This document shows positions 1 to 40,700 of a stretch of 51,945 bases of DNA, one piece after another. How positions within the stretch are numbered: position 1 is the stretch's first letter; each line of letters starts with the position of its first letter. The notes beneath the pieces were generated by a model. That model did no database searches. It saw only the letters and a program-made list of their open reading frames with translations, and was not told the origin of the DNA. The DNA lies in assembly GCA_043228905.1 (NCBI GenBank), contig JBHGNT010000214.1, positions 1 through 51,945 of the forward strand. The letters are read 5' to 3'. Position numbers and translations under genes: made by a program. The stretch is from Azolla caroliniana. Lineage: Eukaryota; Plantae; Polypodiophyta.

Positions 1-678
1 CTACGGTGTGAAACCGAGTGAGACGAATAAACCAAGGATGTGCAACATTGCACATGCACTTAGCAAATAAACCTAAGGCCTAGTGGCACTTGAGTTTATA
101 CAGAGGGGTGCAAGCAAGGTTTGAACCTTGCACCTCTAAGATAAAAGATGATTGCCTTACCATTAGGACAACTATCATATAGCGTAGATTTTATGTATTT
201 CTTTTTTATATACGAATTATAGATGAAACAACCATAGAAAACCATGTGCACAAAACCATGGTTCTAAACCCATGGTTTGTGCATGACATAAGCAAAACCG
301 TGTGCACAAAACCATGGTTTTAGCCCATGGTTTTGTGCATGTCACAAGCATGGAAAGACCTATAAAAGCCTCTAGTTGGGCTTGTGTAAGGGGGGCTCAA
401 TATGTGATATCACCAACACCATTATCATCAATATAATTATATTTGTCTTTATCTTCTTCATATTTTCTACTTCTCAAGTGTACAATCTTTCTTCTTCTCA
501 AGTAAACCAATTTCATCTAATCTTACATTGATCATCATCTCTTCGATAATTCTGCAAACATCCTCCCCAGTCCAAGACCCCGGTGGTCGCTCGAGTAGCA
601 CACGCACGCGCGAATCTTCGCGACACTGTACGAAGCCCCCCCCGTCCAACGGCACAACCACCCAGCGTGGGGCCTCAC
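1..678 (+). mobile_element. Probable LTR (5' end outside window, right end uncertain)
   Basis: Same layout as the LTRs at 12281 and 16042: antisense tRNA-like box pair (117-170), CATG-rich cluster (~240-350), TATAAAA at 361, pyrimidine-rich R/U5-like tail. No clean terminus or TSD is visible. Confidence 0.45.
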
Positions 679-1041
679 CTTTGATTTGAATAAAGGTCCA
701 ACTCACCGCCAACTGGTCGGCCTTTGGACCTGCGTCAATGTACTCCCCACCACCTACAAATGGGATTTTGAAACCATGATTGACACACGTTTTTCCCCCG
801 CTTATACCCCCTTCTCCCTTCGCCGGCCACAACACCTGCACCTGGCTCACCGGCCCCAAGAAAGATTTCTTCACAACAACCGACCAACTGCAGGAAATCC
901 AACTACCACCAATGAACATCCGCCGTCTTTGCCATCATTTCCGCCGCCCCCCGCCCCCCAAAGAACCCCCCTACTCAATCCTACTCGCCCCCGATGCCCG
1001 AAGCTCCCCTCCCACAGTGCACCCAAGGGTGTGCACTCATT

Positions 1042-10005: not shown

Positions 10006-12460
10006 GGGAGTATGTTATGTACACATAACGTTGGTGAGGGTAGGTCGCTAATATTTACATTAGTGAAGGGTATGTTCACTATTATTAAAAAGGGGACTAA
10101 TGATTGGATAGAATGAATGATATGTGCATGCACTATCATGATTTAGACAACCAATGAATAGAGAGCCTTTTAGAAAGGCACATCTATTCAAGGGGCCTAG
10201 GAAAAGGTATAAATATGAGGCTTAGCTACCCTCATAAGGATCATCACGTCGGAAGGCTGCTGTCGTAGACACCGGTGGTGCGGGCTAGGCTTTCGTCTCG
10301 ACGATCGTGTTTATCTCTTCCAAGGTATTAGTCATCCTAATATCCGGCGGTATGGGACGTCGGTGGTAGGTTGGCTATGTCTAGATCATAGCTCGGGGGT
10401 GGTCGGGTGGAACGGGTTCTTCTATCCAATCTATTTTCTTCCTTATTACTTGATTTGGTCTATTGATTAGTAATAGACTCTTAACAGAAGTACTGTCAGA
10501 GTACTCACACATACTTCAATGCTCATCAATTAGCCTCCTACCCTAACTCCCAAAATTATTTCTTACGAGGAATAGCGCTTTAACGGCCTCTTGGCTTATG
10601 CACCGTTACGACCTTTTTGCGGACAGTTTTACGCACCCAGTCTACGCATTGGTTTACACACCCAATGTTGAGCTTGTATCTCAACACTCCCCCTCAAGCT
10701 CAACTTGAGGTTCCGCCCCCTCTTTCGGATCTTCACTCTGGCTTCTCCTGGCTTCACGCCTCACACACACTCCTCGACCCGTTCGATTCCGCGCGCCTCA
10801 ACCCATTCGATTCCGTGTGCCTCAACCCTTCCGGTCGGCTTGTCTGCTTGTGCGGCCCTTCTGAGCTCCCTTGTTATCGCGGTGATATCTCTTCTTTCGC
10901 TGCCCTTTCCTCCACTTGGTCCACAGTTGATTCGGCATGTCCAAATCAAACATTTCGATTGAATCGGTCACTTTCGATTCATTTTCGTTTATGTTTGAAT
11001 TGGTTGTCTCCAATTCGTTTTCAGTCTTTAGGCCTTTGACAATGTCAGACCAAGTCTTGGTCTTGGCCTTATCGCCCCATTTTTTGGATGACTTCGGCTC
11101 TTCCCTACGATTACGGCCCCTGTACTCATCTTCGCCTTCTTTAGCCGACCCGAAATCGCGGTGATCAATTCCGCTGCGATGATCCTTTCCGCTCCTTTCA
11201 AGCTCACACTCCTGTTCCTTTCTCCCCCTTATGTTCGGTGTGTCGAGGTGGCGTAACCCAATCGCATCCGAGAATTGTCGTAAGCGGCTTGGTGAATACG
11301 TCGGCAATCTGCCAACAAGTCGGAACATACGCTAGTTCGACTTCACCGGAAAGGACACGCTCACGGACAAAATGGAAATGCACCTCAATGTGCTTGGTCC
11401 GAGCGTGAAATACGGGGTTTCTCGCAAGTTGGATGCTGCTGAGGTTGTCGTAATAGATCGTTGTCGGAGCGAATACCTCCACATGCAGATCCCATATTAG
11501 CCGTTTTAGCCAAATGACTTCGCACGTAGCGACAATCACCCCTCGATATTCAACCTCCGTGCTCGACAGTGCTACTCTCGGCTGCTTCTTACTACTCCAT
11601 GTGATCGCCGCAGTTCCCATTGAGAATGCGTATCCGGATGTGGATCTTCGATCGTTGGCATTTCCGGCCCAATCGGCATCTGTGTAGCCAACTAATTGTT
11701 CGTCTACGCCTGCCCGATACAGCAACGCCATGTCTTTAGTGCCGGTGGCATATCACAGTATCCTTTGCACACACTGAAAGTGTTCGGCCGTGGGCTGCGA
11801 CATAAATTGACTGATCAAGCCGACCGGGTAGCTGAGATCCAGCCGAGTGATCGTCAAATAGATTAGGCTTCCGACAATATGTCGGAACCATGTCGGGTCA
11901 CACGCCTTACCCGAATCTCGGCGAAGCTTGACGTTTCTAACCATAAGGGTCGAGATGGGCTTACAATATGCCATCCCGAACTTGAAGAGCATATTTAGCA
12001 CGTAATGACGATGGCTGATCAATATACCTTCGAGGGTGCGGATCACTCCGATCCCAAGAAAGTATTGAAGGTCTCCAAGATCCTTCATGTCGAATGATGC
12101 CGCAAGGTGACACTTTACGCGATTGATTTCATCCAGGTCGACACCGGCGATGACTAAATCATCAACATAAAGTAAAAGAAAAACCGCTCCATGTCAACCT
12201 TGCCGAGTGAACAATGAAGAGTCTGACTTCGATGGCGCAAACCCCATTGTACGCAATCGTTGCGTAATCTTCCTGCATGATGTCAAGATATGAGGGTATA
12301 AAGTTTGTGAAAGGAAAAGAGAAAACTGTGAGATATCCCACATAGGCACGACAAATACGGCTCTCATAATATATAAGGTAGAGCAAAAGTTATTATCTTT
12401 GTGTTTATGTGTGGAGCATAGAGAGTTCAAGGTAACTTGAACTAAGAGTGGAGGTGGCCT

Positions 12461-13093
12461 AGCCACTTGTAAAGGTTTTGGCCGACCAAAACCGGACCGA
12501 CGATGGAGCCGATGGAACCGACATCCAACGGTAGCCACTGGTCACCGGCAACATCCGGCACTGGTGAGGCGACGGCAACCGGTAATCGGCGGTATCTGAC
12601 GACTAAATAAATAAATATATAAATATATATACATATATATATATACAAGGAGGACAAGTAAGGATTCGAACCTTGCACCTCCAAGTGAGGAGTCAATTGG
12701 CTTACCACTAGGCCAAGATATTTAGTAGAAAGTATATTTCTATCATCGTACTTTTACATGGAAATTCTCATACATGAGAGCCACTCGTAAAGGTTTTGGC
12801 CGACCAAAACCGGACCGGCGATGGAGCTGGTGGAACCGACATCCGGCGGCAGCCACTGGTCACCGGCAACATCCGGCACTGGTGAGGCGACGGCAACCGG
12901 TAACCGGCGGTATCCGACGACTAGATAAATAAATATATAAATATATATACATATATATATACAAGGAGGAGAAGTAAGGATTCGAACCTTGCACCTCCAA
13001 GTGAGGAGGCAATTGGCTTACCACTAAGCCAAGATATTTAGTTGAAATTATATTTCTATCATTGTACTTTTACATGGAAATTCTCATACATGA
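12461..13093 (+). repeat. 316-bp tandem duplication inside the solo LTR
   Basis: GCCACTyGTAAAGGTTTTGGCCGACC...ATTCTCATACATGA occurs twice; marker GGATTCGAACC at 12662 and 12978. Confidence 0.92.
12662..12715 (-). promoter_or_regulatory. tRNA-like Pol III type-2 internal promoter cassette (second copy 12978-13031)
   Basis: Minus strand: A-box TGGCCTAGTGG, B-box GGTTCGAATCC, starts 43 nt apart. D-like, anticodon-like and T-like hairpins are present but there is no acceptor stem. Confidence 0.7.
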
Positions 13094-16041
13094 AAGCTAA
13101 AATGAGTGACATGGTTAACATGCACCACATGTAATACATGAGCGCCAAATGGCAAACATGCATTTTATGCATGTCTTGTACCCTCACATGCATCATATGC
13201 ATGAGAGCATCTATAAAAGAAGGGATGAAAAAGAAGAAGGGTTAGGTTTCTTTTGGGTTATGAAATTAAGAAGAAGAGAATTCGTTATCGAATTGATCAT
13301 GTAACTTGTTTCTTAAAATCTAAAATCAAGAGTTCAATCTTAATCTCTCTCAATCTAAAGTCAAGCGCTCTATTCTATCTCAAGCTCTCTCTCTCTCTTT
13401 CAATCTAGCTTAAGTACTTTCTCGCTAAAGCTTGCGCCAACTTCAAGTCCTTCCGCTCCAGAACCCTGGCGGTTCCGCCTCACGATCCGCGCATAGTGAC
13501 AGATCTTCACGACAACGCACAGTGGTCATCTTCGTGACCAACGCGAAGGTCTCGTCGTAATCCACATCGTGCTTCTGCGTGTAGCCTTTTACCACTAATC
13601 GGGACTTTTAACGGTTGATAGAGTCGTTGGTGTTGTACTTGACCTTATACACCCATCTGCATCCGATCAGCTTCACACCCTTCGGTGCGTCAACCAGGTC
13701 CGAAGTCTCGTTGTCCAATAACGCGTACATCTCTTCTTCCATCGCGGCACGCCAGTTTGCGTCTTTCACCGCTTTTGCGTAGCTCTCCGGCTCACGCACT
13801 TCCGCCACTCGCGTCATGTACACATAATGGTGCGCCATGTACTCATTATACCCGTATCTCTTTACGGGGTTCTTTAGGCAGGTAGATCGGTGTAATTCGT
13901 GATTAGCTGATTTTGCGGCCCTCTCAACCGACTTCGACCTCTTCCGTAGGGGTTCCTTTTCAATTGGTTGAACTCGTACTCCAACATCTTCTTCTTCCCC
14001 TTCTCTCTGCGCGTAAATCGTCTCCTCGATTCTTTATGTGGGGACAAGACGGTCGAGTCTCCACTACTCGTTGACTCTTCACACAGTTGACCATCTCAGC
14101 TAAACCCCTCACTCGGCCCACTTAGTTGAAATGAGATCTGACTCTCTCGTAGAGCTTCGATTTCCTCATCGCGCGAAGGCATCTCATCCTCGCTGACCTC
14201 TTTTTCTGAATTCGGAGTGGAGACATTGCGTACTAGGGGCGAAGACAAGTACCACGAAGTGGACTCGTCGAACACAACATCTCGACTTACGCGAGCTTGT
14301 TTGGTTCAGGGGTTAGAGCACTCATAACCCTTCTGTTCATCTAAGTAGCCAACCAAGATACACTTCTCGGCTTTGGCGTCCAACTTCCTCCGTTTCTCCT
14401 TCGGCACATGCACATACGCGATGCTACCGAAAACTCTCAACTGTGCCAAGTTCGGGTTCTTGCCGAAGTACAGCTGGTGTGGCGACACTCCATTGACAGA
14501 AGTCCGATTCTACAAGTAAACAACCATCCTTACGGCTTCAACCCAATAGAACTTCGACAGATGCTTCTCTTCAAGCATCACCCTTTCCGCCTCTTTATTG
14601 TCTGATTCTTCCACTTGGCCATGCCGTTCTGCTACAGCGTGTATCTACACGAGAATTCGCGTTGAATTCCCTCCTTCTGTAGATAACTCGCGAATTGGTT
14701 GGAGAAGTACTCCTTCTCGCCATCGAACCGTAGGCACTTGATCTTACGCCTAGTTTCCCTTTCCGCAAGGCTCTTTACCTTCAGGAAACACGTGAAGACT
14801 TCACTCTTTTTCGCGATCAAGCATGCCCAAGTGTGCCGAGAGAAGTCATCGATGAAAGTCACGAAATATCAACTTCCACTGAGACTCACGTTCTATGTTG
14901 TTCCCCATACATCCGAATGGATCACAACGAGCGTATTTCGACTCAGGTTACACTCATTGGGGAATGGAAGTCGGTGATGCTTTCCCAACTGGCAGGCTTC
15001 ACAGACTTGGCCCTTTCGGCCACTAAATTTCGGCAAGCCGAAAACGATGTTTTTCATCCGCATTTTTCAAAGCTTCGGGAAATTGACTTGGCCAAACCAC
15101 TTGTGCCACAAGTCGATATCTGATTCGACCTTTTGTCCTTTTGCGAACATAGCGGTGCCTACGTCGTAGGTCTCGGGGATAAACATCCTCCCTTCACGGC
15201 GTCCTTGTACGATTATCTTGCCTTCCTCTTCTATGAAGCACCCGAGATGCGTGAATCGAACTTGCATCCCCTGGTCAACGATCTGGCCGACCAACACCAG
15301 GTTCTTGGTTATTGTTGGGATGTGTAGCACGTTCATGAGCTTCCCTTTCTGTCCAACGTAACTGAGGGGAACTTCACTGACATGTTCGATGGTATGCAGA
15401 GTGTCGTCTCCTGTTTCGACCATTCCTTGCTTTTCCGGTTTCTCCAAGTACGTGAACCATTCCTTGTGACTTGTCATATGATTTGATGCTCCAAAGTCAA
15501 CATACCACACCTCATTTGCCCTCGAGGTGTTCACGACCATTGAATTAGCCTTGTGCTTCATTACGAAGGCTGGGCCCAATCCATTTCCAACTCGTTTGGA
15601 ACCTTCCACGCCTCTTTGCGTCTCTTCGGCTCGATCCAGCTTTGTCGGAATCAGCTCGTTTCTTCCAACACTCGTTCTCCCTGTGGCCTTTCTTGCCACA
15701 GTACCATCAATATGCCGTGGCCTTCTCCTGCTGGTTTCGGCGCCGCCATGACTCCCCCTGCTTCCGGAGGGTTCGGAACTACTTCCGGCATTTTGATTAT
15801 GGCACACGTTTTGCTCTTTTCGGCCGCCTCCATTGCTCACCGATCCGCCACGTCCGCCACGACCACGTGTGCGTACTCGTCGATGCACCCACGTGATTTT
15901 CCTCTTTGAACAACATCGATTGAACCTCAAAGAATGATGGCGTATTCTCCCTTGTGCAGACTGTCGTTCGGAAAGCTCCGAACTTGGACGCTAGCCCTCC
16001 AAGGCACACATGCACTATTTCATCTTCCTTGATGTTCACGT

Positions 16042-16814
16042 TGTCATGCCTTTCGGCGCCAGATTGTTGTGTGAGTCGGGTGGGAACCGTTGGGGTTTTG
16101 GACTAGGAGGAGGAAGAATTTGAGGCAACCTAGTTATGAGTAGATTATAAGAAAGAGAGATAGAAATTCGTGAATGCCACGAATATAGTTTTTTAGTTTT
16201 ATTAATATTTAAGCCTAATTATACTTTGGAATAGATTGGAATCGATAGGAATAGATTGGAAAAGAGAAATCGAAAACCTCGTGATTCCCACGAGTATTAT
16301 ATTAATCAATATTTAGACCCTAATAATCACCCCATAATTTATTTATTTATTTTTTCTCCCTTTATTACATTGTGCTCCCATCCTTATATAGTGATGAGAG
16401 AGTCTTAACAATCCATGCTTTTTCTCTAACTATAGACTATATGATTTCTCTAACATGCTTCTTCTAAAAGTGAACATGCTTTTTCTAACCTCATGGGTTT
16501 TTATCGACTATAGTGTTCATGCACGCTAAATGTGCATGTGTAGCTTTTTTCTATCATGCGTTTTTCTTCTAACTAAAGCTTTTTCTTAGAAAATATGCAT
16601 GAAAAAACCATTCTATCTGGGATATCTACTTTTTTTATCATTCAAGATGTGTTAGTGTAGTGGTAAAGCTACAAATTATTAACATGGAGGTACAAGGTTC
16701 AAATCTTGCCCTATGCATGTAATATATATTTTGATATTTCTTTCTTTTTCTTCATATTTATTCAATCGGTTATTTTATACGTTTTTCACGTACTATACGA
16801 AATACACTACGACA
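16042..16814 (-). mobile_element. Solo LTR inserted in Copia-B gag
   Basis: TGTC...GACA termini and a perfect 4-bp TSD ACGT (16038-16041 / 16815-16818). Removing it restores collinearity with Copia-C gag. The minus-strand start TGTCGTAG resembles the Gypsy-3 LTR start TGTCGTGA. Confidence 0.88.
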
Positions 16815-19837: not shown

Positions 19838-19940
19838 TGTCGTGAAGTACGAAAGCTTCACATTAAAAGTCTACAAAAAGATAAATACGTAACTAAAATA
19901 AAATATATCTTGATAATGTTTTATAAAGGTAATATTAAAA

Positions 19941-20091
19941 GGAAATTGGTAAATTCATAGTTTTTTCCGTATTTTCATAGTTTTTTTGGGGGGATGGAAT
20001 TTGGCTATCATTTGTAGTGCAAATAATCATATTTCTGAACTTAAAAAAAAACTGTGAAAATACGGAAAAAACTTTGAATTTATCAATTTCC
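19941..20091. mobile_element. 151-bp Mutator-like MITE
   Basis: ~47-bp TIRs GGAAATTGGTAAATTCATAGTTTTTTCCGTATTTTCA / TGAAAATACGGAAAAAACTTTGAATTTATCAATTTCC; 8-bp TSD TATTAAAA (19933-19940 / 20092-20099). Absent from the sister 3' LTR at ~39870. Confidence 0.88.
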
Positions 20092-20909
20092 TATTAAAAA
20101 CTAACTATGATAATATTATACATTATATGTAGAAGCAAATAAAACATATATATATTATATTACACAAACAAGAAAAGACTTGAACCAATAACCCCCACCT
20201 TATGACTTTAAAACCTTACCATTTACCCTATAATTGTAGTATGTTTAAAACTGTATGTCTTCTTTTATTTGAAGTTGTAAAAAGTAGCGTGCGGAAGCAA
20301 GTATGAAGACCGAACAGAAGGAAGAAAACTCAGGTTTAATGGAGAGCTTGAGCTTACGCAGTATATGCGGGAGAGACAGAGACAGAGAGAGTGAGAGAGA
20401 GAAAACACAAGAATTATTTCAAAAAGGTACTCAATCTCTATTCACTACTCTATACATATGTGTGTTCAATGAACACTTTTATACAAGTCCTAAAAGGACT
20501 GACAGAAGTACTGACAGTACTTCAATGCTCATTAAGAGCTCCTACACTAACTCCCAAATATATTCCTCACGGAATATCTTTCCTAACGGCCTCCCGGTTT
20601 ACGCATTCGGCCTAACCGATCGGTCCCAACCGATCTGGTCCTCGGCTTCTTTAGCCGATCTGGCCGATGTTGAGCTTGTCTCTCAACACTCCCCCTCAAG
20701 CTCAACTTGAGGCTCTTCGGGATCTTTGGGCTCACAGCTCTGGTTCCTCCTGGCTTCACGCCTCGCTCGCGCTCCTCGACCTGTTCGACTCCGCGCGCTT
20801 CAACCCTTTCGGTCGGCTTGTTTGCTCATGTGGCCCTTATCAGGTCTTCTACTGTTGCGGTGTTGACGCTTCTCCTGCTGCCTTTTCTTCCACTTGGGCC
20901 TCGGTTGAT

Positions 20910-24393: not shown

Positions 24394-24856
24394 TGTCAAG
24401 ACTGAGAGAGAGAAAGAGAGAGAAAAAGAGATAGAGAGATAATTGAAAGAGAATTATTATATTGAAGCGTAAAATGGATTACAAAGAGTAGGCTACAAAA
24501 TGGCGTTGAACCAATTTAGGTTTGGGATGGGTGGTAGATCCCTATTTATAAGTAATAGAGAACTCTCTAGAATATTCTAGGTTATCCTAGAATGTAGAGT
24601 AATCTAGAAGATCTCTAGAGTATTCTAGAAGGTTCTAGTGGTATAGAACACTCTAGAATATTCTAGGTCATTCTAGAATGTAGAGTAATATAGAATATTC
24701 CTATGATATTAGATTTCATATTCTAGAGACTATACATATAAGAATATTAATACAATGGTTAAGGATTTGACATGTGTACAACAAGGTCGTGGGTTCAAAT
24801 CCTTTCGAGTCATAATGTGAGTGTCATGATCCTTTCGATGCATGATGTGACTGTTA

Positions 24857-27287
24857 TCATGACACTATCCCCCTTCTTCGACGACACGTCTCACGGGTCG
24901 TAGGGTTTGTATTAGGACCTGGTTTACAAGGATATTGGCGATGAAATGCATTGACGAGTTCTGCAGCATTGGAAAGATTTGTGGCAGGTTCCCAAGTTCG
25001 ATCATTGGGGGTATAGCCTAGCCAATCGACCAAGTAATACAACTTGTTGCGCACGATTTTAGAATCGAGAACGGCAGCAACTTCAAATTCAGGCCCGTCC
25101 AAGAACTCGACAGGTGGTGGGGGTGTCGTAAGACGGCCCGGAATTGAACTTGTAGTATAAGGTTCCAAAAGGGATACATGAAACACCGGATGAAGATGCA
25201 TGTGCGGAGGGAGGTCAATACGAAATGCAACATCACTTATCTTACCAGTGATCATGTAAGGGCCAAAACGTTGGTAATCCAATTTATTGCAAGGTCGAGT
25301 GGTCTTGATGTTGTGTTGGAGAAGCCATACATGATCCCCAATGCGGAACTTTTTTGAGGAGTCTAGACGATGACGATCGGCAAGCCTCTTGTGTGTAAAT
25401 TGAGCATCGTGCAAATTGTGGAGAATGTTAGCTTGAATTTCTTGGAGGCGACTAAGACGATCCTCGGCAGCAGGGTTGGTAGGAACTTCTGGATGCGCAT
25501 TCATCGTCCATCGAGGATGACAGCCCGTATTTGCGAAAAATGGGGAATATCCTGTAGAAGAATGGGCTGAGTTGTTGTAAGCGAATTCCGCCAAGTGCAA
25601 AAATGCAACCCAATCATCTTGTTGATAGTTGATGAAACAACGAAGATATTGTTCCAATGTCTGGTTGGTACGCTCTGTTTGACCATTTGTTTCAGGATGA
25701 TAGCCCGAAGAAAGCTTAACTGAAATGTGGAGAAGTTTGAACAGGTGCTTCCAAAACTTTGAGATGAATTGTGGACCACGATCACTAATAATATCATCTG
25801 GCAGACCATGATGCTTAAATACCTCCCGCATAACGAGATCAGCCGTCTCTTGACTAGTAATTGACTTTGTACATGGCAAGAAATGTGCCATTTTGGTAAA
25901 TCGATCAACTACTGTGAGAATTGCATCAAAACCTTTTGAAACTGGGAGATCAGTAATGAAGTCCAAGGATATAGACTTCCAAGGTGTTTCCGGAATGGGA
26001 AGTGGTTGTAGTAAGCCATAGGGTCGGTGACGAGGATTCTTTGATCGACAACATATATCACAACTCCGAACATACTCCTCAACAAAATGACGAAGGCGAG
26101 GCCACCAATAGCGTCGAGAAATTAATTCTAGAGTCTTGTGAACTCCAAAATGACCAGCCATTGGTGAGTCATGGCAATGTTGCAAAACTTGTAGCCGTGG
26201 GGGACCATCAGGAACATACAATAAATTTTGTCGAAATAGAAAACCATCATGCCAATAGAACTGACAATAGTCATTACGAGGATTTTTCGACTGTGAGCAA
26301 GAAGCACGATCCGGGACGATATGATCCAAAACATCCTTGGCGAAATCATCAGTGGCCATATGATCTCGAATGGAATCAAGAAGAGTGGAATTTTCAAGAG
26401 CTGTTATGGCATTAACTACCATTAATCGTAATCGATTAGGACCCAAAAGGATTTGTTTTTGATGCTCAAAAGCAGGTTCCCCTGGACGAAGTTCCATATA
26501 AGAGCGCCGAGAAAGAGCATCTGCTTTGCCTTGCTGCATCCCAGGGCGATATATGATGATAAAGTCGAAGTGAGTCAAAAATTGCGCCCACCGGGCTTGT
26601 CGCCGACTCAAGACTCGAGCATTTTGGAAATAAGTCAGGTTCTTATGATCATTGTAGACAATGATCTGCTGAGAAGAACCTTCTAGGAAATGTCGCCATT
26701 GTTGAAACGAATCCACGATTGCAAGAAGCTCTTTGTCATGGATCTCGTAGTTGATCTCTGCAGCTTCAAACTTTCGTGAATGAAAGGCGACAGGGTGTAG
26801 TTGTCCATCATCTCCAGTCTGCGAGAGGACACTCCCTAGTGCAAAATCGGATGCATCGGCTTCGAGGATGAAGCGTTTTGTTGGGTCGACATGTGCTAAG
26901 ATAGGTGCCGTTGTAAATGCTCGTTTTAAGCTTTCGAATGCCTCGGATGCATCTGAACTCCATATAAATGGTTGATCTTTATGTGTGAGCTGAGTAAGCG
27001 GAAGCACAACCTTGGAATAATCTTTAATAAATTTCCGATAAAAATTTGCAAACCCGAGAAAACATTGCACATCACGCACTGAAAGGGGCGTTTGCCACTC
27101 TAAAATTGCCTGTACCTTCATGGGGTCCATAGCAATACCATTTGACGATACAACATACCCCAAAAATTCCACTTGATTCTGGCCGAAACTACACTTTTCT
27201 AGTTTTGCGTAGAGACCATATTCTCGGAGTCGGCATAGTACTTGACGAACATGTGCATCATGCTCCTCTTGGGTCTTTGAGTAGATG
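24857..27287 (-). pseudogene. pol: Gypsy-2 truncated Pol (RT C-terminus, RNase H, integrase, chromodomain)
   Basis: The frame starts at IYSKTQEEH, just after the missing YxDD. It contains EADAS, SLDF/SDRG/TER, GPY, and chromodomain FEVAAVLDSK...YLVDWLGY...TWEP. Confidence 0.93.
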
Positions 27288-27410
27288 TGGTAAGCTCGAC
27301 TTGTGCTGAAAAAACTCGACTCACTTGATTTGATGAAATGGAACCACGACTAGGAACTAACTCTACATAGCTAGGATGGTCCAGCCAAATGGCTCCTATT
27401 TTGGCCGAAC

Positions 27411-28535
27411 TTACTCGTTTAACACATCCTCTAATTGACTCAAGACATCGAATCTATTCTCATGACATGGACTATGAGGCTTATTTATGTTATTAGAAGT
27501 AACAATAGAACTCGATGTAGGGTTTTCATGGGCACTTACTTGGTATACTTGACGCCTAGGTTTATGTGGACAATTTACAGCTATATGTCCTGGACCACCA
27601 CAATATAGGCAGAGGCGATGCGCTCGACGTCGTTGCTTCTCAGCATCTGATAACGGCCCACGACGTTGTGTTGACTCTATTTCCATCGGAGTTGGGCCAT
27701 CCCTTGTAATGGGTCTAGAAACTTGTGGAGGCGTTGCGACTACGGAAGCGTAAGTCTGTTCAGGTTGGCGGCGTAACATTTGTTGGCGCTCAGAACGTCG
27801 CTCAAATAGGCGATTATCACATCGCACAGCTCGACTAATGGCTTCTGTAAGTGACTTCGGATCTTCAGGGAAAGTAAGAAGAAGATCTTTGACATCATTT
27901 CTCAAACCTTGACGGAATTGATCCATTAAAGCTGCCTCATCCCAAGGGATATCGCATGCCAAGAGACGGAAATCGGCTGCATAAGATGACGCGGGACGAT
28001 CTCCTTGTCGGAGCCTTCGAATCTTGTTTATCGCTGTCCTAGTGCTGTCGGTGTCTCCGAAACTAGCTTGAAACTCTTTAACAAAGGCCTCGAAATCCTC
28101 CAACAATGGTGATTTCTTCTCGAGAAGTGGTGCGAACCATGCTAACGCCGTACCGCATAGCAAAGTTCCCACTAATCCCACACGAGCAGCATCAGTTGGA
28201 TACCGATTGGGATGTAGCTGAATAACTAAACGAACTTGATTCAAAAAGCCTCGAAATAAAGACCTCGTACCATCAAACTTGGCAGGGAGGCTGATCTTTG
28301 GCTCTCTAGGGGAGTTCTGAGCCCCCGACGCTTGCTCTCGTAATGACAATATAGTCGCCTCAAGTTGATGAACCCGCTGTGATAACTCTTCATATTGTTG
28401 AGCTTTTTCGGCGCTCACGTGTTGTAGATCTCCAAGTAGCCTTTGATTCTCATGCTCTAATGCCACAAATTTATTCGTGAGCATGTCGAGCTCAGAAAGA
28501 ACACGCATGTATTCTTGTTTGCTCACGGACTCCAT
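27411..28535 (-). CDS. gag: Gypsy-2 Gag
   Basis: 374-aa intact ORF with an N-terminal coiled-coil-like segment, LPAKFDG capsid motif, PTPMEI, and zinc knuckle CLYCGGPGHIAVNC. Confidence 0.93.
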   Translation of the reverse strand: MESVSKQEYMRVLSELDMLTNKFVALEHENQRLLGDLQHVSAEKAQQYEELSQRVHQLEATILSLREQASGAQNSPREPKISLPAKFDGTRSLFRGFLNQVRLVIQLHPNRYPTDAARVGLVGTLLCGTALAWFAPLLEKKSPLLEDFEAFVKEFQASFGDTDSTRTAINKIRRLRQGDRPASSYAADFRLLACDIPWDEAALMDQFRQGLRNDVKDLLLTFPEDPKSLTEAISRAVRCDNRLFERRSERQQMLRRQPEQTYASVVATPPQVSRPITRDGPTPMEIESTQRRGPLSDAEKQRRRAHRLCLYCGGPGHIAVNCPHKPRRQVYQVSAHENPTSSSIVTSNNINKPHSPCHENRFDVLSQLEDVLNE

Positions 28536-28610
28536 AGCTTATGAGGGGAGAGGAGAAGGAAGAAGAGAACTTGTTAGGGTTTGTGGAAGACGAAGAGATG
28601 AAAGGAAGGT

Positions 28611-28621
28611 AATTGGTTCAA
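28611..28621 (-). promoter_or_regulatory. Self-priming PBS of Gypsy-2
   Basis: Minus-strand TTGAACCAATT, 2 nt inside the 5' LTR boundary, is exactly complementary to LTR sequence AATTGGTTCAA (28746-28736), which lies 26 nt after the TATA box (28780-28773). Confidence 0.85.
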
Positions 28622-29094
28622 ACTGTCAAGACTGAGAGAGAGAAAGAGAGAGAAAAAGAGATAGAGAGATAATTGAAAGAGAATTATTATATTGAAGCGT
28701 AAAATGGATTACAAAGAGTAGGCTACAAAATGGCGTTGAACCAATTTAGGTTTGGGATGGGTGGTAGATCCCTATTTATAAGTAATAGAGAACTCTCTAG
28801 AATATTCTAGGTTATCCTAGAATGTAGAGTAATCTAGAAGATCTCTAGAGTATTCTAGAAGGTTCTAGTGGTATAGAACACTCTAGAATATTCTAGGTCA
28901 TTCTAGAATGTAGAGTAATATAGAATATTCCTATGATATTAGATTTCATATTCTAGAGACTATACATATAAGAATATTAATACAATGGTTAAGGATTTGA
29001 CATGTGTACAACAAGGTCGTGGGTTCAAATCCTTTCGAGTCATAATGTGAGTGTCATGATCCTTTCGATGCATGATGTGACTGTTATCATGACA

Positions 29095-30100: not shown

Positions 30101-33100
30101 GCCTCTATCCATCGTTCTTCTTGTTCTTCTTCGTCAAGCTGTGTCGACTGCAGAGAGGTTCTCAACCCTCACGCTCTGATACCATGTAAAAAGTAGCGTG
30201 CGGAAGCAAGTATGAAGACCGAACAGAAGGAAGAAAACTCAGGTTTAATGGAGAGCTTGAGCTTACGCAGTATATGCGGGAGAGACAGAGACAGAGAGAG
30301 TGAGAGAGAGAAAACACAAGAACTATTTCAAAAAGGTACTCAATCTCTATTCACTACTCTATACATATGTGTGTTCAATGAACACTTTTATACAAGTCCT
30401 AAAAGGACTGACAGAAGTACTGACAGTACTTCAATGCTCATTAAGAGCTCCAACACTAACTCCCAAATATATTCCTCACGGAATATCTTTCCTAACGGCC
30501 TCCCAGTTTACACATTCGGCCTAACCAATCGGTCCCAACCAATCCGGTCCTCGGCTTCTTCAGCCGATCCGGCTGATGTTGAGCTTGTCTCTCAACAGAA
30601 GAAATATTGTATGGTTTAAATCCTAAAAACCATATAATGTACTACATGTGCACCATATATTGTATCACATGGGCGAGAGAAGACTTGAACCACCAACCTC
30701 CACATTATGAACCTCAAAGCCTAACATTTAGCCAATACTCATTATATGCATAAAAAAAACAAAAATGTGTTATTTTATTTGACGTAGCATTGTATAGTCT
30801 AAACCATGTAATACATGTGCACCATATAGCACACATGCAAGACCACTCTTTGCATGTGTGACATATGGCCCACATGCAAAACCATCCCCTTCCTATAAAA
30901 GGAGAAGGGAGTGTAGTCACAAGGATATCAAGGAATCAATCAATAATATTGAATAGAATTATTGTATGGAATTGATCGAAATTATATTGTACGAGATATC
31001 ATAATAAAGAAAGAGGGAGAGAAGGTAAAAGCTATATATACAATCCTCAAAAGAGACGAGAAGAACTAGCTTGGCGGCGGCGGTGCTCAACTCACAACGA
31101 AAAGGCGGAGGTTCGAGTCTTATCCTCATCGAAAGATAGAAGGGAAGATAATGGTCTACTATCAAGAAAGAGAAGAGTGACTACCTTGTGAGACAAAGTT
31201 TGACGGTTCAACGATGCTCGCAACCATTTTGTAACTCTTTCATGAAATAATTATAAATTTCTTACATTCCCTCAATTATCATTTTACATCCTATCTTGTC
31301 ATATCTTGTTGATCGCTATTGATCTATTCCACTCTTTCGTCTCTTCCGTCCAAAATCCCAACGATTCCTTCCTCACTTTCATGTTGTCTTCTGTCTACGC
31401 AATGTTACGCTTCTAGGCGAGCCCCACCACGACACTATTTGGTGAACCCGACGTGAAATGGGGAAGTAGAAGAGACATCTAAAGTAAAGATCAACATCAA
31501 CATGGCAAGTACAAGCACAATGGATCCGGTAAGGTTGTTTATTGAAAAGTTGAACCAAGATAAATTATTTCATGCCTTACGAGAAGTCCGTGAGAAGATT
31601 GGTGTGTTTGATGGCACAAATATTTCAAAGTATGTGAATATATATTATGATCAAATGGAAATGTCTGGTGTGAATGATGTCAATATGATAGCAAAATTTT
31701 ATAAATTAGTGGACATGGAATTAAGAGATAGAATTCATGAAATACAAACATTGCATAGTTTGGATTGAAATGCATTCAAAGAAGCACTTGTGTCTGAATA
31801 CTCGTGTGAAGATTTCTCTCGCATTACTATGCGTTCATTCCATGAATAGGTCCTAAAAGAAAATAAAGGATTATCTGTGGCTGACACGAGAAAAGAGTTT
31901 GATAGATTGTATGGACACTTAAAGCTAGAAGAAAGAAATTCTTTGTCTTGGCAAAAGGTTGCTTTATTTTTGCAGGCAGTTGACAAGAGATATAGAAAAT
32001 AATTGGAATTTATGCTTGAAGTACCAAATACCGAGGATGGTATAACTGCATATTGGAATGAGGTAACAAATGCTTGTAATAAATTTATGAAAAGAATGCA
32101 AAGCAATGGTGCAATGCTACAAATACCACATGTGGGAATCACAAATCGGCTTGAGCAAAACATCGAAGTTCAAAGACTTGGTCGAGAACCATCACATGAA
32201 ATGGTCGATCAACCACGAGAAATGACCGAAACTAAGAGTGAGTCTTTGCTTGATGATTTAGTTCAAAGTATTAAAGATCTAACAATTAAAGTGGCAAAGC
32301 TTGAGAATGGTCCGACTTCGAGGTCAAGGGAACCATTTCGACCTCGATGTATGTGGTGTGATAGTCTCGAACATCGACTACGTGATTGTGAAGAATATAA
32401 AGACATGGAAAATCGAGACTTGGTCTATTGGAAAAATGGTAACATTTACTTAACTGAAACTAGAAGTCCACTTACAAAGAACTTTGGTGATGGTGGTGTT
32501 AAGGTTAAGTTTGAAGAAGCTAAAGCAAAAAAGGCTTCTGCAATGTACTACTCGGCAACGACAGGAATGCGTCTTGATGATACACCATACCGATCATCAT
32601 TTTGGGAGAAGGTTGTAAGTTCCACACAAAAGCAAAAGTTGAAGATGGAAGACCTTCGTGTTGCCGGAGATGCTGTAAGAAAAAACACTAGATGGGATGT
32701 TCCAGTAGATGCTATGACAGTCTATGCTCAGATGGCAGAACACCAAGAGCATGAGGTGATAGTGGAAGAAAAAAGGAAAAGGCCAGATGATGAGATTGGC
32801 TCAACAAAAAAGCATGAGAGAAGAGAAAGCAAAAGAAAAGAGATGGACACAAAAATCGAAAAAGGTAAATCTAGTACTTCATTCAAATTAATGTCTGATG
32901 TTGAAAATGATATAGATTTAAAGAAAATTTTAGAAACAAGAATACTAGACAGTCGAGTAGAATTTACACTAAGAGAAGTGTTAGGTATTGCGAAAAAGGA
33001 ATTTCATGATGAAATAATTGATATTGTGCGAAGAAAGAAGCAAGTAAATGAGCAGGTTAAAGAGACAAATCCGAAGGTGGCATATGAAGTGGTGATCAAC

Positions 33101-34843: not shown

Positions 34844-37701
34844 TAATTGCGTCGCGTTTGCAAGTGAAAAAGTTGAAAATTTTCACCATTTGGTAAAATT
34901 GAAAAATGCCAAATTTTGGTCAAATATAAAAGGTAACTTTGTGTATTTTTAAAGAAAAATGAAAACTAATAAGTTTTTAGATCTTAAAGAAATCAAAAGT
35001 AGAGGATTTCAAAACAATGAACGTTTTTATTTCATTCGATAAAATGTTGTCTAAATTTGTTACACAGTTGCACAAAAAATACATTTGGGGGTTATTTGCA
35101 TAAATATCATCATTCTTTTCATGAGAATCACTCCTATAGATAATATACAACTTTGACTCTTCCTCCTCATTTTCAAATGTACCAATCAAATCATTGTCTT
35201 CACCAAATGGTGTCTCCAAATTGTGTGCACTAAATCTTCTTCACCTTCAATTTGAGATATCTTCTAGACTTGGTAATATCTCTTTTATTATGTATATCGT
35301 TGTTGTCCTTAAACATCCAACTTTTGTCAGTGTAAAGTCATACACAATGATATCCACCTAACTAATGTCAATGATAGATGTATTACAAAGGTTTAATGCA
35401 TCATCACATCCAAAACTTTACCAATGCAGAATTGGTACCCTAGCTCATGGCCATCTACATGTGTAGTTATTAATATCCCCACCTTGAGTTCTTGCAAGTT
35501 TCCTTGTCACCTTAGTCATGCTCGTGTTGTCATCTTTTGTTCCACATAAATGTTTCTCTGTTGTAGATGAACCAAACTATGAAGATCAACATTAAGTGCT
35601 TGAAGTGCTCATTGAGAACCACGAGAATACTTTATAGACCATGTAAATGACATTTGCAAGGTTCAATTACCATCAACACAATTATTAATGGTTTTTTGTT
35701 AATCAATGATGCACATGTTCACCACAAGGTATCTTGTTATGCAACATACTTCTTTGGACTATCGATATGCATCTTTTTCTCTTCTAAAAACAAAGATTTT
35801 AGTACGATTCAAGTTCATGTTTTAAAAACCTCTTTTATTTGAAAAACAAGAAGATTTTTAAACATGAACTTGATACGTTGTATCGAGTTGATGTAAAAAA
35901 CAGAGTTTTGATCATAATTCCATACAATGTATTGAATTCATGTTCAAAGCTTGTTTTACCATATTTAAAAAAAATTAATAATAGTAAGTTCAGCTTGAGT
36001 TCATATAAGAAACAGATTTTTCAATACAATGTATCAAGTTCATGTTTAAAGTATTTTTTTCTTTTTTCTTTTTTTCTTTTTTTTCTTTTTTTTCAATTTT
36101 GTTTAAGGAAAAAAATAATTTTAAACATGAATTCGATACATTGTATTGACTTGTGATGAAAACTCTAGTTTTTTCATCATTCATTAAAGCTCAAAAAAAA
36201 ATTTCAAAAATAACAAACAAAAAACCAAAATAAATAGAAAAAAAAACATTTTTTTTAAAACCCAAAAGAAAAGCTTTAAACAAGTTAGATTTTCAACACG
36301 AACTCAATACAATGTATGGAGTTCGTGTAGAAAAGTCGACTTTTTGACACGAACTCGATACATTTGATCGAGTTCATGTTGAAAAGCTAACTTTTTGACA
36401 TGAACTCGATACAATGTATCGAGTTCATGTTTAAAGCTTTATTTGGGGTTTTTTTTTAAATTGCTTTTTTTTTCTATTTATTTTGTTTTTTTTTTTTTGA
36501 GCTTTAATAAATGATGAAAAAAACAGAGTTTTCATCACAAGTCGATACAATATATCGAATTCATGTTTAAATATATTTTTTTCCATAAATAAAATAGAAA
36601 AAAATCAAAAAAATCAAAAAAATAGAAACAAATAGAAAAAAATTAGAAAAATATACTTTAAACATGAACTCGATGCGTTGTATCGAATTGTGATGAAAAA
36701 TCTTGTTTTTATATGAACTCAAGCTCAACTTATTATTATTAATTTTTTTTAAATCCGATAAAAAAAACTTTGAACATGAATTCAATACACTGTATGGAAT
36801 TATGATCAAAACTCTATTTTTTACATCAACTCGATACAACATATCAAGTTCATGTTTAAAAATCTTCTTGTTTTTCAAATAAAAGAGCTTTTTTAACTAA
36901 ACTCAAATTATACTGAAATCTATGTTTTTACAAGAGAAAAAGATCCATATCGATACACCAAAGATGTATGTTGCACAACAAGATACCTTATGGTGAACAT
37001 GTGCTTCATTGATTAGCAAAAAACCATTAATAATTTTATTGATGGTAATTGAACTTTGCAAATGCCATTTACTTCACAAATTTTGTAGGGGAATTCTCAA
37101 AAGGAAGAAGAGGATAACATTGTAGATACCCTGATAACTGTGTGATATGTTCAAATTGATATATTAATGTTCACATCTAAAGTTTGACAGTTTTGACAGT
37201 TTATGAATATCATCTACATTTTAGGAGTTGTGGATTTATCAAAATTGTTTATGAATATTGTCTACGTTTCTTGAGTTGTGAATTGATGGATGTTAATGAG
37301 CAATAAATTTATAGATGATGACATTAAGGATTGCAATGTTACCACTTATACTTAAAACTTTTTCAAGTCTAACAAAAGATGTAATCTTAATCTCATCAAG
37401 ATGGTGAAACCATTAATCATAACTTGTGCCTTGAGTTAACCATTGTGATTTTCTTTAAGTTAACTACATTTCATATCTACAAACCATCAACATTTAAACA
37501 TTTAATGAAAAACTATTCAATTTTAGAAATTATCATTTTCAAACTTCTTAAATATCCAAAAATTAGCAAATTTTACATACTATTTAAAACATGTGATACT
37601 GGTGTATCAAGTTTTTGAAAATTTTCTAAAATCGCAAGATTATAAAAGGAATCTATAAATGGAATGCGCGATCTTTCCACTTGTGAACACGAACGTGTTT
37701 A
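34844..37701. mobile_element. ~2.85-kb AT-rich insertion with decayed terminal inverted repeats (probable non-autonomous DNA transposon) in Gypsy-3 RT
   Basis: RT reads ...FLDDIP|I before the insert and resumes as IKGCLE after it. Left end AATTGCGTCGCGTTTGCAAGTGAAAA resembles the revcomp of the right end, AAACACGTTCGTGTTCACAAGTGGAAA. TSD is ambiguous (TA/TAT). Confidence 0.65.
35643..37072. repeat. 1.43-kb foldback (inverted repeat with ~650-bp arms)
   Basis: GTAAATGACATTTGCAAGGTTCAATTACCATC... is mirrored at 37072 leftwards. Near-identical peptides on opposite strands in the ORF track (35839+ vs 36878-). Recurrent GAACTCGATAC/GTATCGAGTTC motifs. Confidence 0.92.
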
Positions 37702-40700
37702 TTAAGGGATGCTTAGAAAGAGATAAAGATGAGGCTATGGTTGGAAATAGTTGCAGAAACTTTGTGATGGATCACATTAATGATTGTGAAAGTATTTTAA
37801 ATAAGCTTGAGCAGGTACATTTGACACTATCAGGAACAAAGTCAAGCTTTGGGCAGAACGAAGTTCTGATAGTTGGTCATATGTGTGGCTGGTATGGAAG
37901 AAAGCCTTCATCGATCAAAATTAATGAAATACAAATTATGAAGGAGGTTTGTGAATCGGTAACAAAGGTGAGAAGATTTTTAGGTGCATGTGTGTTTTAT
38001 CATATTTGGTTACCACACTTTGCACATGTATCAGATCCTCTCTACTAACTTTTAAGAAAAGGGAAGAAGTTTATTTGGACTGATGAACATACACAAGTTG
38101 TTCAACAATTGAAAGAAGCATTGTTGAAAGCTCCAGTTCTTCGTCAACCAAACTACAATAGTGAAAGACCAATTATAGTGACAGTTGATACTAGCCCAAT
38201 TGGGATCGGTTGGGTTATCAACCAAGAAGATGAAGACCAACATCAATATGCTATCAGGTTTGGAGCAAAGATATTAAATGAAAGACAAAGAAATTATGCA
38301 CAAGTTAAACGAGAATTGTTGGGTTTCCTTATTGCATTAAAAACAGATAGAGATTACCTGATCGGAGCAGATGTAGTGGTTGAAACAGATTGTTTGCCAC
38401 TCATCGGAATGATAGCAAGTTGCACCACACGAGATATTGCAATGCTTCAATGGATTGCATACATTAGAACCATGAACCCAGAATTACGGCATACATTAGA
38501 ACCATGAACCCAGTAAATGAATTTCGAAGACGAGTATTCAAGTTTTTTTCATGTGAAGGGCATTTATGGAGGCGCCCAAAAAGGCCAACCGAAAATCCTC
38601 TTCTAGTCATTTGTAAGGATGACATTAAGAGAAAATTAATTAATGAATTCCATGATAGTTTGTGGGCAAGACATAGAGGCATATGGGCAGCATTTATGAA
38701 GTTGAAAGAAAAGTATTGGTGACCACATATGTATAAAGATGTAACGAAATTTGTGGAAACCTGTGAAGTCTACCAGAGGTATTCAACTATTCGATATCAA
38801 GATGAGTTAAAACCAACATATTCATCATCAATGCATTATAAATGGATGGTCAATCTAGTGACAATGCCACTTGGGGAAGGTCAAATGCGATACTTAGTAC
38901 TAGCAAGAGAGAAGACCTTACAAACCAAGTTGAAGGAAGACCACTACGACAAAAAACAACTAGAGCTGTATGTAAATTTTTGTTAGAAGATGTAATATGT
39001 TGTTACGGGTGTGTTGGTAAAATAATTGAGGAGAACTTGACTCTGATGAAGCTAGAGCATTCTTCAGCTGGATAGGGGTCAAATAATCACTTACAGCTGC
39101 GTATAATCCAGAAGTCAATGGAAAGATTGAAAGAGGACATATCCCAATAGTTAGGCGATCATGAAAAGTTGTAAAGGTAAAATAAGAGATTGGCCACGCA
39201 TGCTACCTTATGCACTATGGGCGGATCAGACAACGCATAGTTCGGTAATAGGATACATGCCAACTGAATTGATACTTGGCTAAAAGCCCATCATGCCGGT
39301 AGAAGAATCAATTATGTCATGGATATCTATTCCATAGAGAGAGGAGGTGAGCAGAGAAGAATGGCTTGCTTTGCGAATTCAACAATTAGAGTGTTAGCCT
39401 AAAGATGTAGAATTAGCAGCCCAACGATTGAAGGAAGCTCGACTAAAGAATAAAATTCGTTTTGATAAACCTCACAGAATTTGACATAAGAAGATAGAAG
39501 AAGGGGATTGGGTGCTTGTGTATGATGACAGTTTAGATAATCAACATAACACCCTATGCAAGTTTGCTGAAAGATGGTTTGGGCCTTACATAGTAAGAAA
39601 AGTATATGATAACTTAGTGAATTGGATGGAAAACTAATCCTAAACGTGGTAGTTAGAAAGAGGATAAAAGTATTTAAGAAAAGGTTTGAGCTCGAACTTC
39701 CTCCAATAGCTCAACATGAAGGTGAAAGATAGTGGCACATGTTGGAGGATGTGCAGGTCTAGAGGGGGTGGATGTCGTGAAGTACGAAAGCTTCACATTA
39801 AAATTCTACAAAAAGATAAATACGTAACTAAAATAAAATATAGCTTGATAATGTTTTATAAAGGTAATATTATAAACACACTATGATAATATTATACATT
39901 ATATGTAAAGGCAAATAAAACAAATATATTATATTACATGGACAAGAGAGGACTTGAACCAATAACCCCCACCTTACAACTTTAAAACCTTACCATTTAC
40001 CCAATAATTGTAGTATATAACTATATGTCTTATTCCTAAACCATATAATGTACTACATGTGCACCATATATAGTATCATGGGCAAGAGAAAACTTGAACC
40101 AACAACCTCCACATTATGAACCTCAAAGCCTAACATTTAGCCAATACTCATTATATTTGTAAAAAAAACAAAAATGTCTTGTTTTATTTGAAGTAGCATT
40201 GTATAGTCCATGTAATACATGTGCACCATATAACACACTTGCAAGAGCCCTCTTTGCATGTGTGACATATGGTTCACATGCAAAACCATCCCCTTCATAT
40301 AAAAGGAGAAGGGAGTGTAGTCACAAGGATATCAAGGAATCAATCAATCATATTGAATAGAATTATTGTATGGAATTGATCGAAATTATATTGTACGAGA
40401 TATCATAATAAAGAAAGAGGGAGAGAAGGTAAAACCTATATACAATCTTCAAAAGACAAGAGAAGAACTAGCTTGGCGACGGCGGTGCTCAACTTGCAAC
40501 GAAAAGGCGGAGGTTCGAGTCTTATCCTCATCGAAAGATAGAAGGGAAGATTATGGTCTACTACAAAGAAAGAAAAGAGCAACTACCTTGTGAGACAAAG
40601 TTCGATAGTTCAATGACGCTCGTAGCCATTTTGTAACTCTTTCATGAAATAATTTTAAATTTCTTACATTCCCTCAATTATCATTTTACATCCTATCTTG

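Follow-up and report, generated by a model that had tools for sequence, protein, structure and literature searches.

Long terminal repeats and cassettes of the window

The window, by which we mean the whole 51,945-nt stretch of Azolla caroliniana DNA analysed here, holds long terminal repeats (LTRs) from several retrotransposons, and five of these LTR types carry a cassette made of an A box and a B box, the motifs of an RNA polymerase III (Pol III) promoter. LTR A (1..625, forward strand), whose 5' end lies beyond the window, has a CATG cluster and a TATA box at 361 and ends in ...GACA, with no primer binding site (PBS) after that end; its cassette, recognised by the box scan and shuffles, occupies 117..170 on the reverse strand. 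The solo LTR B (12281..13514, forward; TATA at 13212) belongs to an abundant family and shows a tandem duplication private to itself (about 12461-12781 and 12779-13097), with one cassette in each copy (12662..12715 and 12978..13031, both reverse), recognised by reading the boxes and from family contigs. Contigs of runs X9, X12 and X18 link the second of these to the enhancer region, and in run X18 the sequence is contiguous through to the TATA box; run X12 also contains three single contigs whose joints pass over part of the B cassette, with unassigned sequence in between. LTR C (16042..16814, reverse; 4-bp target site duplication (TSD) ACGT; TATA near 16388) is laid out in U3 like the Gypsy-3 LTR, and its cassette (16653..16706, forward) is antisense to it and 108 nt from its 5' end.

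Gypsy-2 (24394..29094, reverse) has LTRs identical at 471/471 positions and the TSD CGTAC, and bears a chromodomain (PF00385). Its cassettes lie on the forward strand at 24748..24802 in the 3' LTR (24394-24864) and at 28978..29032 in the 5' LTR (28624-29094), the latter 62 nt from the LTR's 5' end and upstream of an array of HSE motifs and a TATA box at about 28781. The PBS (28611..28623, reverse) is complementary to the predicted 5' end of the element's own RNA (about 28746-28735) and covaries with the start of R across the clade to which Gypsy-2 belongs, as befits the self-priming described for Tcn1 (PMC6317226, partial text). The window copy is without protease and most of the reverse transcriptase (RT), both of which are intact in the relatives L011 and P0001. 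We call Gypsy-2 a Tcn1-like chromovirus because it shares the chromodomain and self-priming PBS with that group (PMC6317226, PMC2864245, partial texts), a provisional assignment that goes by these features.

Gypsy-3 lies on the forward strand, and its 5' LTR (19838..20275) is interrupted by a Copia insertion, beyond which it resumes at 30598-31434. Each LTR holds two cassettes on the reverse strand: a (20176..20230) and b (30681..30734) in the 5' LTR, and a (39950..40003) and b (40090..40143) in the 3' LTR (39773..40742). The tRNA-type PBS (31440..31457) presumably pairs with tRNA-Trp. The nearest named RT matches are from Riccia (60-65%) and Adiantum (56%); no relatives of Gypsy-3 were found in the viral and genome contigs scanned, nor a B-type cassette in the viral contigs scanned. 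A search for host exons gave no match. Contig depth is highest at the B-box bin, a quantity that cannot rank parts. Set beside the Phygy-like non-chromoviruses (PMC6317226, PMC2864245), Gypsy-3 has a tRNA PBS, and its scanned frames contain no chromodomain; the available parts of these descriptions of Tcn1-like and Phygy-like elements make no mention of a Pol III cassette, the term 'polymerase III' occurring 0 times in that of PMC2864245. The cassettes are hosted by elements of both kinds, Gypsy-2 being a chromovirus and Gypsy-3 not, as had been proposed.

Box pairs against chance and against tRNA genes

All ten A/B-box pairs listed in a first-pass annotation of the window were read as quoted and at the right coordinates, with box starts 43-44 nt apart in every one, as in tRNA genes. 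A scan with a generic consensus (at most two mismatches in the A box and one in the B box, spacing 41-46) returned 13 matches at 10 distinct sites, whereas 25 shuffled sequences averaged 0.64 and never gave more than 2. Nine of the 10 sites are pairs already listed; the pair at 40143 requires two B-box mismatches, and the scan added a weak sense-oriented pair at 31067, within the Gypsy-3 LTR. Looser settings returned 32 matches where 11.6 were expected, and 23 where 6.2 were, so the signal resides in the strict matches. Taken LTR by LTR, all five cassette-bearing LTRs exceeded all 300 shuffles (p=0.003), whereas none of eight other LTR-like stretches of the window, with edges placed by eye, did so (Gypsy-1, Copia and others; p 0.31-1.0), in keeping with the reported absence of the cassette from the Copia and Gypsy-1 LTRs. 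A chance origin of the pairs is ruled out by the window scan and the per-LTR shuffles together.

No tRNA gene surrounds the boxes, neither ARAGORN nor Rfam having returned a tRNA. The antisense orientation claimed for the cassettes is demonstrated by the direction of gag-pol in Gypsy-2 and Gypsy-3; in LTRs A, B and C it is read from the enhancer and TATA layout and from resemblance to the Gypsy-3 LTR. An enhancer-like cluster does separate cassette from TATA box: CATG clusters reach 4-10 per about 180 nt in this interval against a background of 1.05 per 200 nt, and HSE arrays 6 against 0.18. The type of enhancer switches among members, some having HSEs and others CATG-rich sequence, while the cassette stays.

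Two parts of the first-pass description are not borne out in the form given, namely that flanks and spacers are dissimilar and that five families are independently involved. The cassettes of A and B agree at 76% over 76 bp (E 2e-9), those of A and C at 75% over 52 bp and those of B and C at 72% over 68 bp, and a TA-rich tail following the cassette is common to B, C and Gypsy-3. With such homology among A, B and C, five independent origins are not tenable.

Occurrence in related elements

Gypsy-2 falls in a chromovirus clade of 20 rows (98/98), in 11 of which U3 is present on the contig. An antisense cassette was found in all 11, situated 10-62 nt inside the LTR and with a box spacing of 43-44 nt, and eight of the 10 clade cassettes tested lie above shuffles at p<=0.007. 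Outside the clade the cassette is present in L026 (60% protein identity) and L028 (55%), the latter with a poor A box, and absent from L036, L037 and L042 (53-56%). These U3 counts leave out L029 and L031 (no LTR start), L041 (cut short) and L034 (broken). Open frames of more than 1000 aa occur on 10 of the 12 cassette-bearing contigs. Three clade members, L014, L015 and L016, have damaged B boxes together with open pol frames. Loci of high GC content (L035, L038-L040, L043-L058, L060-L080 and L082-L089) have weaker, scattered pairs that were not placed in LTRs.

In family contigs from the runs of four additional organisms the cassette is continuous with the LTR, which speaks against a private SINE insertion, and among the matches listed, loose ends included, there were no free copies outside LTRs. 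The first-pass annotation had named four outcomes that would speak against its claim: private SINE insertions absent from most family members, boxes decaying at the neutral rate, random orientation, and as many spaced pairs in shuffled LTRs. None was observed in the window or the contigs of relatives. Its central proposal, a conserved module mimicking a tRNA gene (tDNA) and fixed in families, is supported: the module is antisense, and boxes and spacing are kept above the level of spacer and flanks.

Conservation of the boxes

Across 11 cassettes (L016 and L025 being omitted as near duplicates of L015 and L021), mean pairwise identity is 0.60 in the A box and 0.74 in the B box, compared with 0.35 in the mid-spacer and 0.31-0.41 in the flanks, where composition alone predicts 0.27-0.38. 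The variable loop, which was outside the search pattern, is conserved as well (A in 11/11, G in 10/11, G in 11/11 and T in 11/11), and loop and boxes sit in tRNA register. C56 is retained in 15 of 16 cassettes and is followed by G or A. At the B-box CpG, G>A exceeds C>T by 6:1, which is suggestive only, as the rows are related. A conserved tRNA fold was considered and is excluded by the stems, which do not covary (208 of 500 shuffles scored equally high); the cloverleaf of a tRNA gene, with its acceptor stem and covarying stems, is lacking.

In 12 of 14 cassettes, the exceptions being LTR C and L028, the 40 nt upstream have an A+T content of 0.78-0.85, on the side where TFIIIB would sit, and such a stretch is a feature of plant tRNA promoters (PMC11700998, partial text). 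Boxes A and B, the spacing of a tRNA gene and, in those 12, the AT-rich upstream region give the cassettes the sequence features of a type 2 Pol III promoter.

A candidate docking site beside the Pol II promoter

Since the boxes are retained while the surrounding DNA turns over, they likely dock the Pol III machinery, and the cassette may protect the element's own promoter from silencing. As read from these sequence patterns, there is about an even chance that the antisense cassette is a DNA docking site for TFIIIC and TFIIIB that keeps the Pol II promoter open. In this scheme a tRNA retrocopy or SINE head would have been captured antisense in U3, either in no fewer than two events, one in the chromovirus clade and one among LTRs A, B, C and Gypsy-3, or in a single old event, the cassette then having passed between U3 modules. 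Once fixed in antisense and conserved as DNA sequence, it would be predicted to bind TFIIIC and TFIIIB, and the bound factors would leave the adjoining enhancer and TATA box open against silencing.

Barriers made of tRNA genes in Schizosaccharomyces pombe require TFIIIC and Pol III and act in either orientation (PMC2040200, partial text), so that barrier activity alone leaves the fixed strand unexplained; the outward orientation could hold Pol III transcription off the enhancer and set TFIIIB on the enhancer side. Against a docking role stand the damaged B boxes of L014-L016 and the cassette-free L036, L037, L042, Gypsy-1 and Copia, as do the poor A box of L028, the LTR C and L028 cassettes that have no AT-rich stretch upstream, the three X12 contigs that pass over part of the B cassette and the weak sense pair at 31067; in the literature found, tDNA barrier activity in plants is undocumented. 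The broader proposition, that a tRNA-gene promoter was domesticated in two or more distant Ty3/Gypsy lineages of seed-free plants as a portable anti-silencing module, its outward-facing cassette binding TFIIIC and TFIIIB and so shielding the Pol II enhancer, is one we advance tentatively, at somewhat below even probability. If true, each new insertion or solo LTR would give the host genome a chromatin barrier of the tDNA kind.

It is unlikely, by our estimate, that the cassette is instead a working Pol III promoter whose antisense RNA, running from U3 into the 3' end of pol or the host flank, tunes or limits the element, for instance through small RNAs. In its favour, the cassettes retain their two boxes, the spacing and the AT-rich stretch upstream, foamy virus LTRs do yield Pol III RNAs from A and B boxes (PMC3993851, partial text), and in nine of 21 cassettes a run of four Ts comes no more than 51 nt from the B box. 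However, terminators share no common position (11 to 386 nt away); four relatives have none within 400 nt, and LTR A has none over the 116 nt that can be read; the sequence downstream is at chance identity (0.31) and no fold covaries. The antisense small RNA offered as an option in the first-pass annotation is weakened accordingly.

Quite improbable, too, is a functionless passenger, descended from a tRNA or SINE head that ancestral LTRs took up. The damaged boxes and cassette-free sister clades would suit it, as would a second antisense cassette that one subclade (L019, L021) carries in frame within its PR-RT linker, by which such pieces have been captured more than once. Yet the spacer is close to saturated, whereas the boxes and the spacer's length (42-44 nt) persist and the flanks vary by tens of bases. 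The majority of a family, moreover, keeps the canonical A box where the window copy deviates: at 40133 in Gypsy-3 the canonical GG end is found in most of the family depth in three of four runs. There is also no TSD, and no free SINE family among the loose ends listed.

We give a low probability to a role in the genomic RNA, in which U3, complementary to tRNA D and T loops, would pair for strand transfer, dimer formation or packaging. The bipartite PBS of Ty3 and a tRNA-like stretch in the U3 of HIV-1 are precedents for tRNA pairing, and such a role would account for the strict antisense strand, the place adjacent to the polypurine tract, the conserved loop sequences and the missing terminator and covariation. 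The chromovirus clade, on the other hand, is self-primed, its PBS covarying with the RNA 5' end, and so uses no tRNA primer; agreement between the Gypsy-3 cassettes and the T arm of the element's own primer, as deduced from the PBS, is limited to 2-3 of 7 positions; and pairing has no need of an AT-rich upstream stretch. An equally low probability attaches to a landing pad or decoy that steers integrases targeting Pol III start sites into or away from existing LTRs. The A box at 20230 does have a Copia insertion 45 nt upstream, but of about eight nested insertions (mapped by eye in the window) this is the only one so placed, Gypsy-1, Gypsy-2, Gypsy-3, B and C having inserted far from cassettes.

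Relation to known systems

Among known systems Helenus, which the first-pass annotation did not name, and Cassandra come closest; both are non-coding and have the promoter in sense. In the Helenus miniature terminal-repeat retrotransposons (TRIMs, TRIMp3; Kojima 2024, PMC10886601, partial text), as here, tRNA-like LTR sequence is conserved around boxes A and B, usually without a functional tRNA, and an origin by SINE insertion into the LTR was proposed. Helenus elements are non-coding and 311-1263 bp long, Pol III being proposed to make their template RNA, and in the sole plant family, from Selaginella, the tRNA-like part is in sense, whereas here it is antisense and points away from the element. 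Gypsy-2 and Gypsy-3 differ further in carrying gag-pol and in having the cassette beside a Pol II enhancer and TATA box. They share the boxes within the LTR and are not short non-coding TRIMs (about 0.3-1.3 kb), nor is theirs a promoter transcribing the element, being antisense in all window cassettes and scored relatives. The same source states that 'not a few LTRs' in Repbase hold tRNA-like parts, its analysis having covered TRIMs only. Cassandra likewise has an internal Pol III promoter in a plant LTR, of type 1 and derived from 5S rRNA, in a non-autonomous element whose own transcript it drives in sense (PMC10886601).

Foamy virus LTRs resemble the present case in placing A/B-box units in an autonomous, Pol II-driven retroelement, and differ in that the units form hairpins with terminators and yield miRNAs (PMC3993851); in the cassettes described here neither a fold nor a terminator is conserved. 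The tDNA-Ala barrier at S. pombe cen1 shares the proposed action, in which Pol III machinery halts the spread of heterochromatin, but such barriers are host tRNA genes and orientation-independent, whereas the present modules are tRNA-less mimics on mobile elements with a putative barrier role (PMC2040200). In a literature search whose coverage excluded most subscription journals and Repbase entries, the arrangement was undescribed; the available parts of PMC12220202, PMC5408687 and bioRxiv 2026.03.01.708851 added nothing further except a mention of Helenus.

Should the cassette bind TFIIIC, autonomous plant retrotransposons would be able to counter heterochromatin through their DNA sequence, with no need for a viral suppressor protein, and abundant solo LTRs would scatter tDNA-like barriers or TFIIIC sites across seed-free plant genomes. 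A single B-box mutation could then test whether tDNA barriers operate in plants, and would also probe how some Gypsy families remain transcribed in heterochromatin rich in transposable elements, the setting in which RLG1 of Physcomitrium is expressed (PMC7466625, partial text). LTRs with antisense cassettes are, in addition, a possible source for Helenus-type LTRs.

tRNA-type boxes in the LTRs

The cassettes considered here are tRNA-like pairs of A and B boxes (type 2 Pol III promoter boxes) lying antisense in the U3 of LTRs A (1..625), B (12281..13514) and C (16042..16814, minus strand) and of the Gypsy-2 and Gypsy-3 LTRs. All ten pairs placed in the window by the first-pass annotation were recovered at their coordinates, with box starts 43-44 nt apart. 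Scanned with a generic A/B-box consensus, the window gave 13 matches at 10 sites, against 0.64 expected and a maximum of 2 in 25 locally shuffled windows; these sites comprise nine of the pairs noted earlier and one weak sense pair at 31067. Each of the five cassette LTRs exceeded 300 shuffles (p=0.003), and none of eight other LTR-like stretches did so in the same per-LTR test. No tRNA was found by ARAGORN or Rfam.

Some lesser motifs were also seen. The weak sense pair (31067-31120 and 40469-40522, plus strand; 43-nt spacing, 3-4 mismatches) lies downstream of the Gypsy-3 TATA, and at 76-128 (plus strand) LTR A, whose B box is nearly palindromic, has an A-box-like 11-mer on the other side of that box, facing it, with three mismatches in total. 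At about 51679-51723 (minus strand), 3' of the host gene, a lone B box with an A-box-like motif ~34 nt upstream is possibly a relic.

The proposal of five independent families did not survive alignment. LTRs A, B and C are related to one another, with cassettes that align at 72-76%, and a TA-rich tail is common to B, C and Gypsy-3. Against this A/B/C/Gypsy-3 group the chromovirus cassettes diverge in the mid-spacer (0.30) and T stem (0.19); the boxes themselves show no such difference.

Conservation and possible function

Across 11 cassettes the boxes are more conserved than their surroundings, with mean pairwise identities of 0.60 (A box) and 0.74 (B box) against 0.35 in the mid-spacer and 0.31-0.41 in the flanks, where composition predicts 0.27-0.38. 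The variable-loop letters are nearly invariant, though outside the search pattern. Spacer length varies by only 2 nt, the A-box-to-TATA distance by far more (110 to 264 nt), and the enhancer lying between A box and TATA comes in two types, HSE array or CATG-rich, depending on the member. The D, anticodon and T stems show no covariation in a 16-row alignment. A+T content over the 40 nt preceding the A box is 0.78-0.85 in 12 of 14 cases; A/T-rich upstream regions are typical of plant tRNA genes (PMC11700998). Judged from sequence, such a pattern marks a promoter working at the DNA level rather than a structured RNA.

The cassette is real and conserved, with a putative function. Where it sits, on which strand, how it is conserved and that the tRNA fold has been lost are plain; the reading we favour, at an even chance, is a TFIIIC/TFIIIB docking site that would keep the neighbouring Pol II enhancer open. 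It would have been captured from a tRNA or SINE head, its boxes may be bound by TFIIIC/TFIIIB, and the bound factors could, by analogy, hold the enhancer in open chromatin. In Schizosaccharomyces pombe, tDNA barriers require TFIIIC and Pol III yet work in either orientation (PMC2040200), so the fixed cassette strand needs an additional reason, the simplest perhaps being that Pol III is kept from running across the enhancer.

That the cassette makes a functional antisense Pol III RNA is unlikely; foamy virus LTRs do contain Pol III miRNA units with terminators (PMC3993851), and here the distance to the first T4 run downstream ranges from 11 to 386 nt where there is one at all. That it is a passenger relic, given box identities above those of spacer and flanks, we consider quite improbable. 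Pairing of the U3 of genomic RNA with a tRNA has precedents and is very doubtful here, being weakened by the self-priming of the chromovirus elements and by Gypsy-3 cassettes matching the primer arm of their own element at only 2-3 of 7 positions. An integration landing pad, favoured by one Copia element inserted at 20275/20276 (TSD GAAGT/GAAGA), 45 nt upstream of the A box of cassette a, is equally doubtful.

Helenus elements carry the same kind of cassette but are short and non-coding, and the cassette is proposed to drive their transcription (PMC10886601); the elements of the window fail two of the three defining features, and in Selaginella Helenus the cassette is in sense rather than antisense. 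In our literature search, no description came up of autonomous plant Gypsy elements with conserved tRNA-type boxes placed antisense in U3. Kojima mentions tRNA-like parts in a number of Repbase LTRs (PMC10886601); the feature may therefore have been noticed at sequence level, though not analysed.

Distribution in relatives and other runs

Of 575 confirmed matches to the Gypsy-2 pol alignment in a metagenome scan, 79 loci were kept; with 10 from viral contigs, all 89 were scanned for boxes. In a 41-row tree Gypsy-2 falls inside a starred clade of 20, of which 11 rows have U3 on the contig; in the remaining nine the contig stops or is broken short of it. In all 11 the cassette is antisense, 10-62 nt inside the LTR and with a spacing of 43-44 nt. 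Shuffling gave p<=0.007 in eight of ten tested; L015 (p=0.037) and L014 (p=0.37) are weaker, and B boxes are damaged in L014-L016. Outside the clade, the cassette is present in L026 and L028 and was not found in L036, L037 or L042. Ten of 12 cassette-bearing contigs have open frames >1000 aa, which makes the module a part of coding elements.

One chromovirus subclade has a second antisense A/B cassette, in frame in the protease-RT linker, which it lengthens (L019:7234-7286 and L021:1010-1062, minus strand, and again in the second pol copy around L021:6330-6390; P0015 and P0079 are the proteins), with 42-nt box spacing and a different D-loop end. Elsewhere, three tRNA-Tyr-like copies lie beside a chromovirus fragment (L019:473-5170), a tRNA-Pro gene also has 43-nt box spacing (L059:2931-3001), and in a high-GC locus an A/B-like pair occurs twice, 545 nt apart (L065:1491 and 2036, plus strand).

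Contigs of four sequencing runs per LTR, from two studies, were compared with the Gypsy-3 3' LTR and with LTR B. For Gypsy-3, two X9 contigs connect B box and spacer with the 5' part of the LTR, and loose ends in X9 (four contigs) and X18 (five) carry another spacer and then an A box in register; among the joints listed are versions with cassette a alone or b alone. Where the window's Gypsy-3 A box deviates, most depth in three of the four runs carries the canonical GG. For LTR B, ten of the contigs listed (X9, X12, X18) span from the B box to the enhancer region, one reaching the TATA, and in three single X12 contigs part of the cassette is passed over. Given the joints listed (15 of 94 for Gypsy-3, 15 of 80 for LTR B), free SINE copies or cassette-less subfamilies may exist.

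Host elements and setting

The window, from a seed-free land plant, consists of nested LTR retrotransposons adjoining one host gene. Gypsy-2 (24394-29094, minus strand) encodes a chromodomain and is flanked by a 5-bp TSD; its two LTRs are identical, and this copy is without protease and most of RT. The PBS and the predicted 5' end of the element are complementary and covary across relatives, as in the self-priming Tcn1 chromoviruses (PMC6317226). The RNA 5' end (28746-28735, minus strand) covaries with this PBS in L016, L017, L020, L021 and L023, and resembles a sense B box with one mismatch, without an A box. Gypsy-3, with a tRNA-type PBS, gave no chromodomain in the frames scanned, and its nearest named RT matches are from Riccia and Adiantum. 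LTRs A, B and C are without internal parts and were oriented by layout; on the minus strand, LTR C ends, at 16042-16061, in a tRNA-PBS-like 13-mer, 3 nt past CA and 7 nt before the TSD, and its 3' edge is ambiguous. At 40743-40862 the terminus of a different abundant element takes the place of the Gypsy-3 3' LTR end and is followed by an inverted LTR-end piece, and two foldback/MITE-like inverted-repeat insertions lie at 35643-37072 and 19935-20097. A Pfam search of exon 1 of the host gene (46968-50887, plus strand) gave no match; the gene has introns, the first of ~3 kb with a 92-bp tandem array, and its product presumably resembles a Bax-inhibitor-1/LFG membrane protein.
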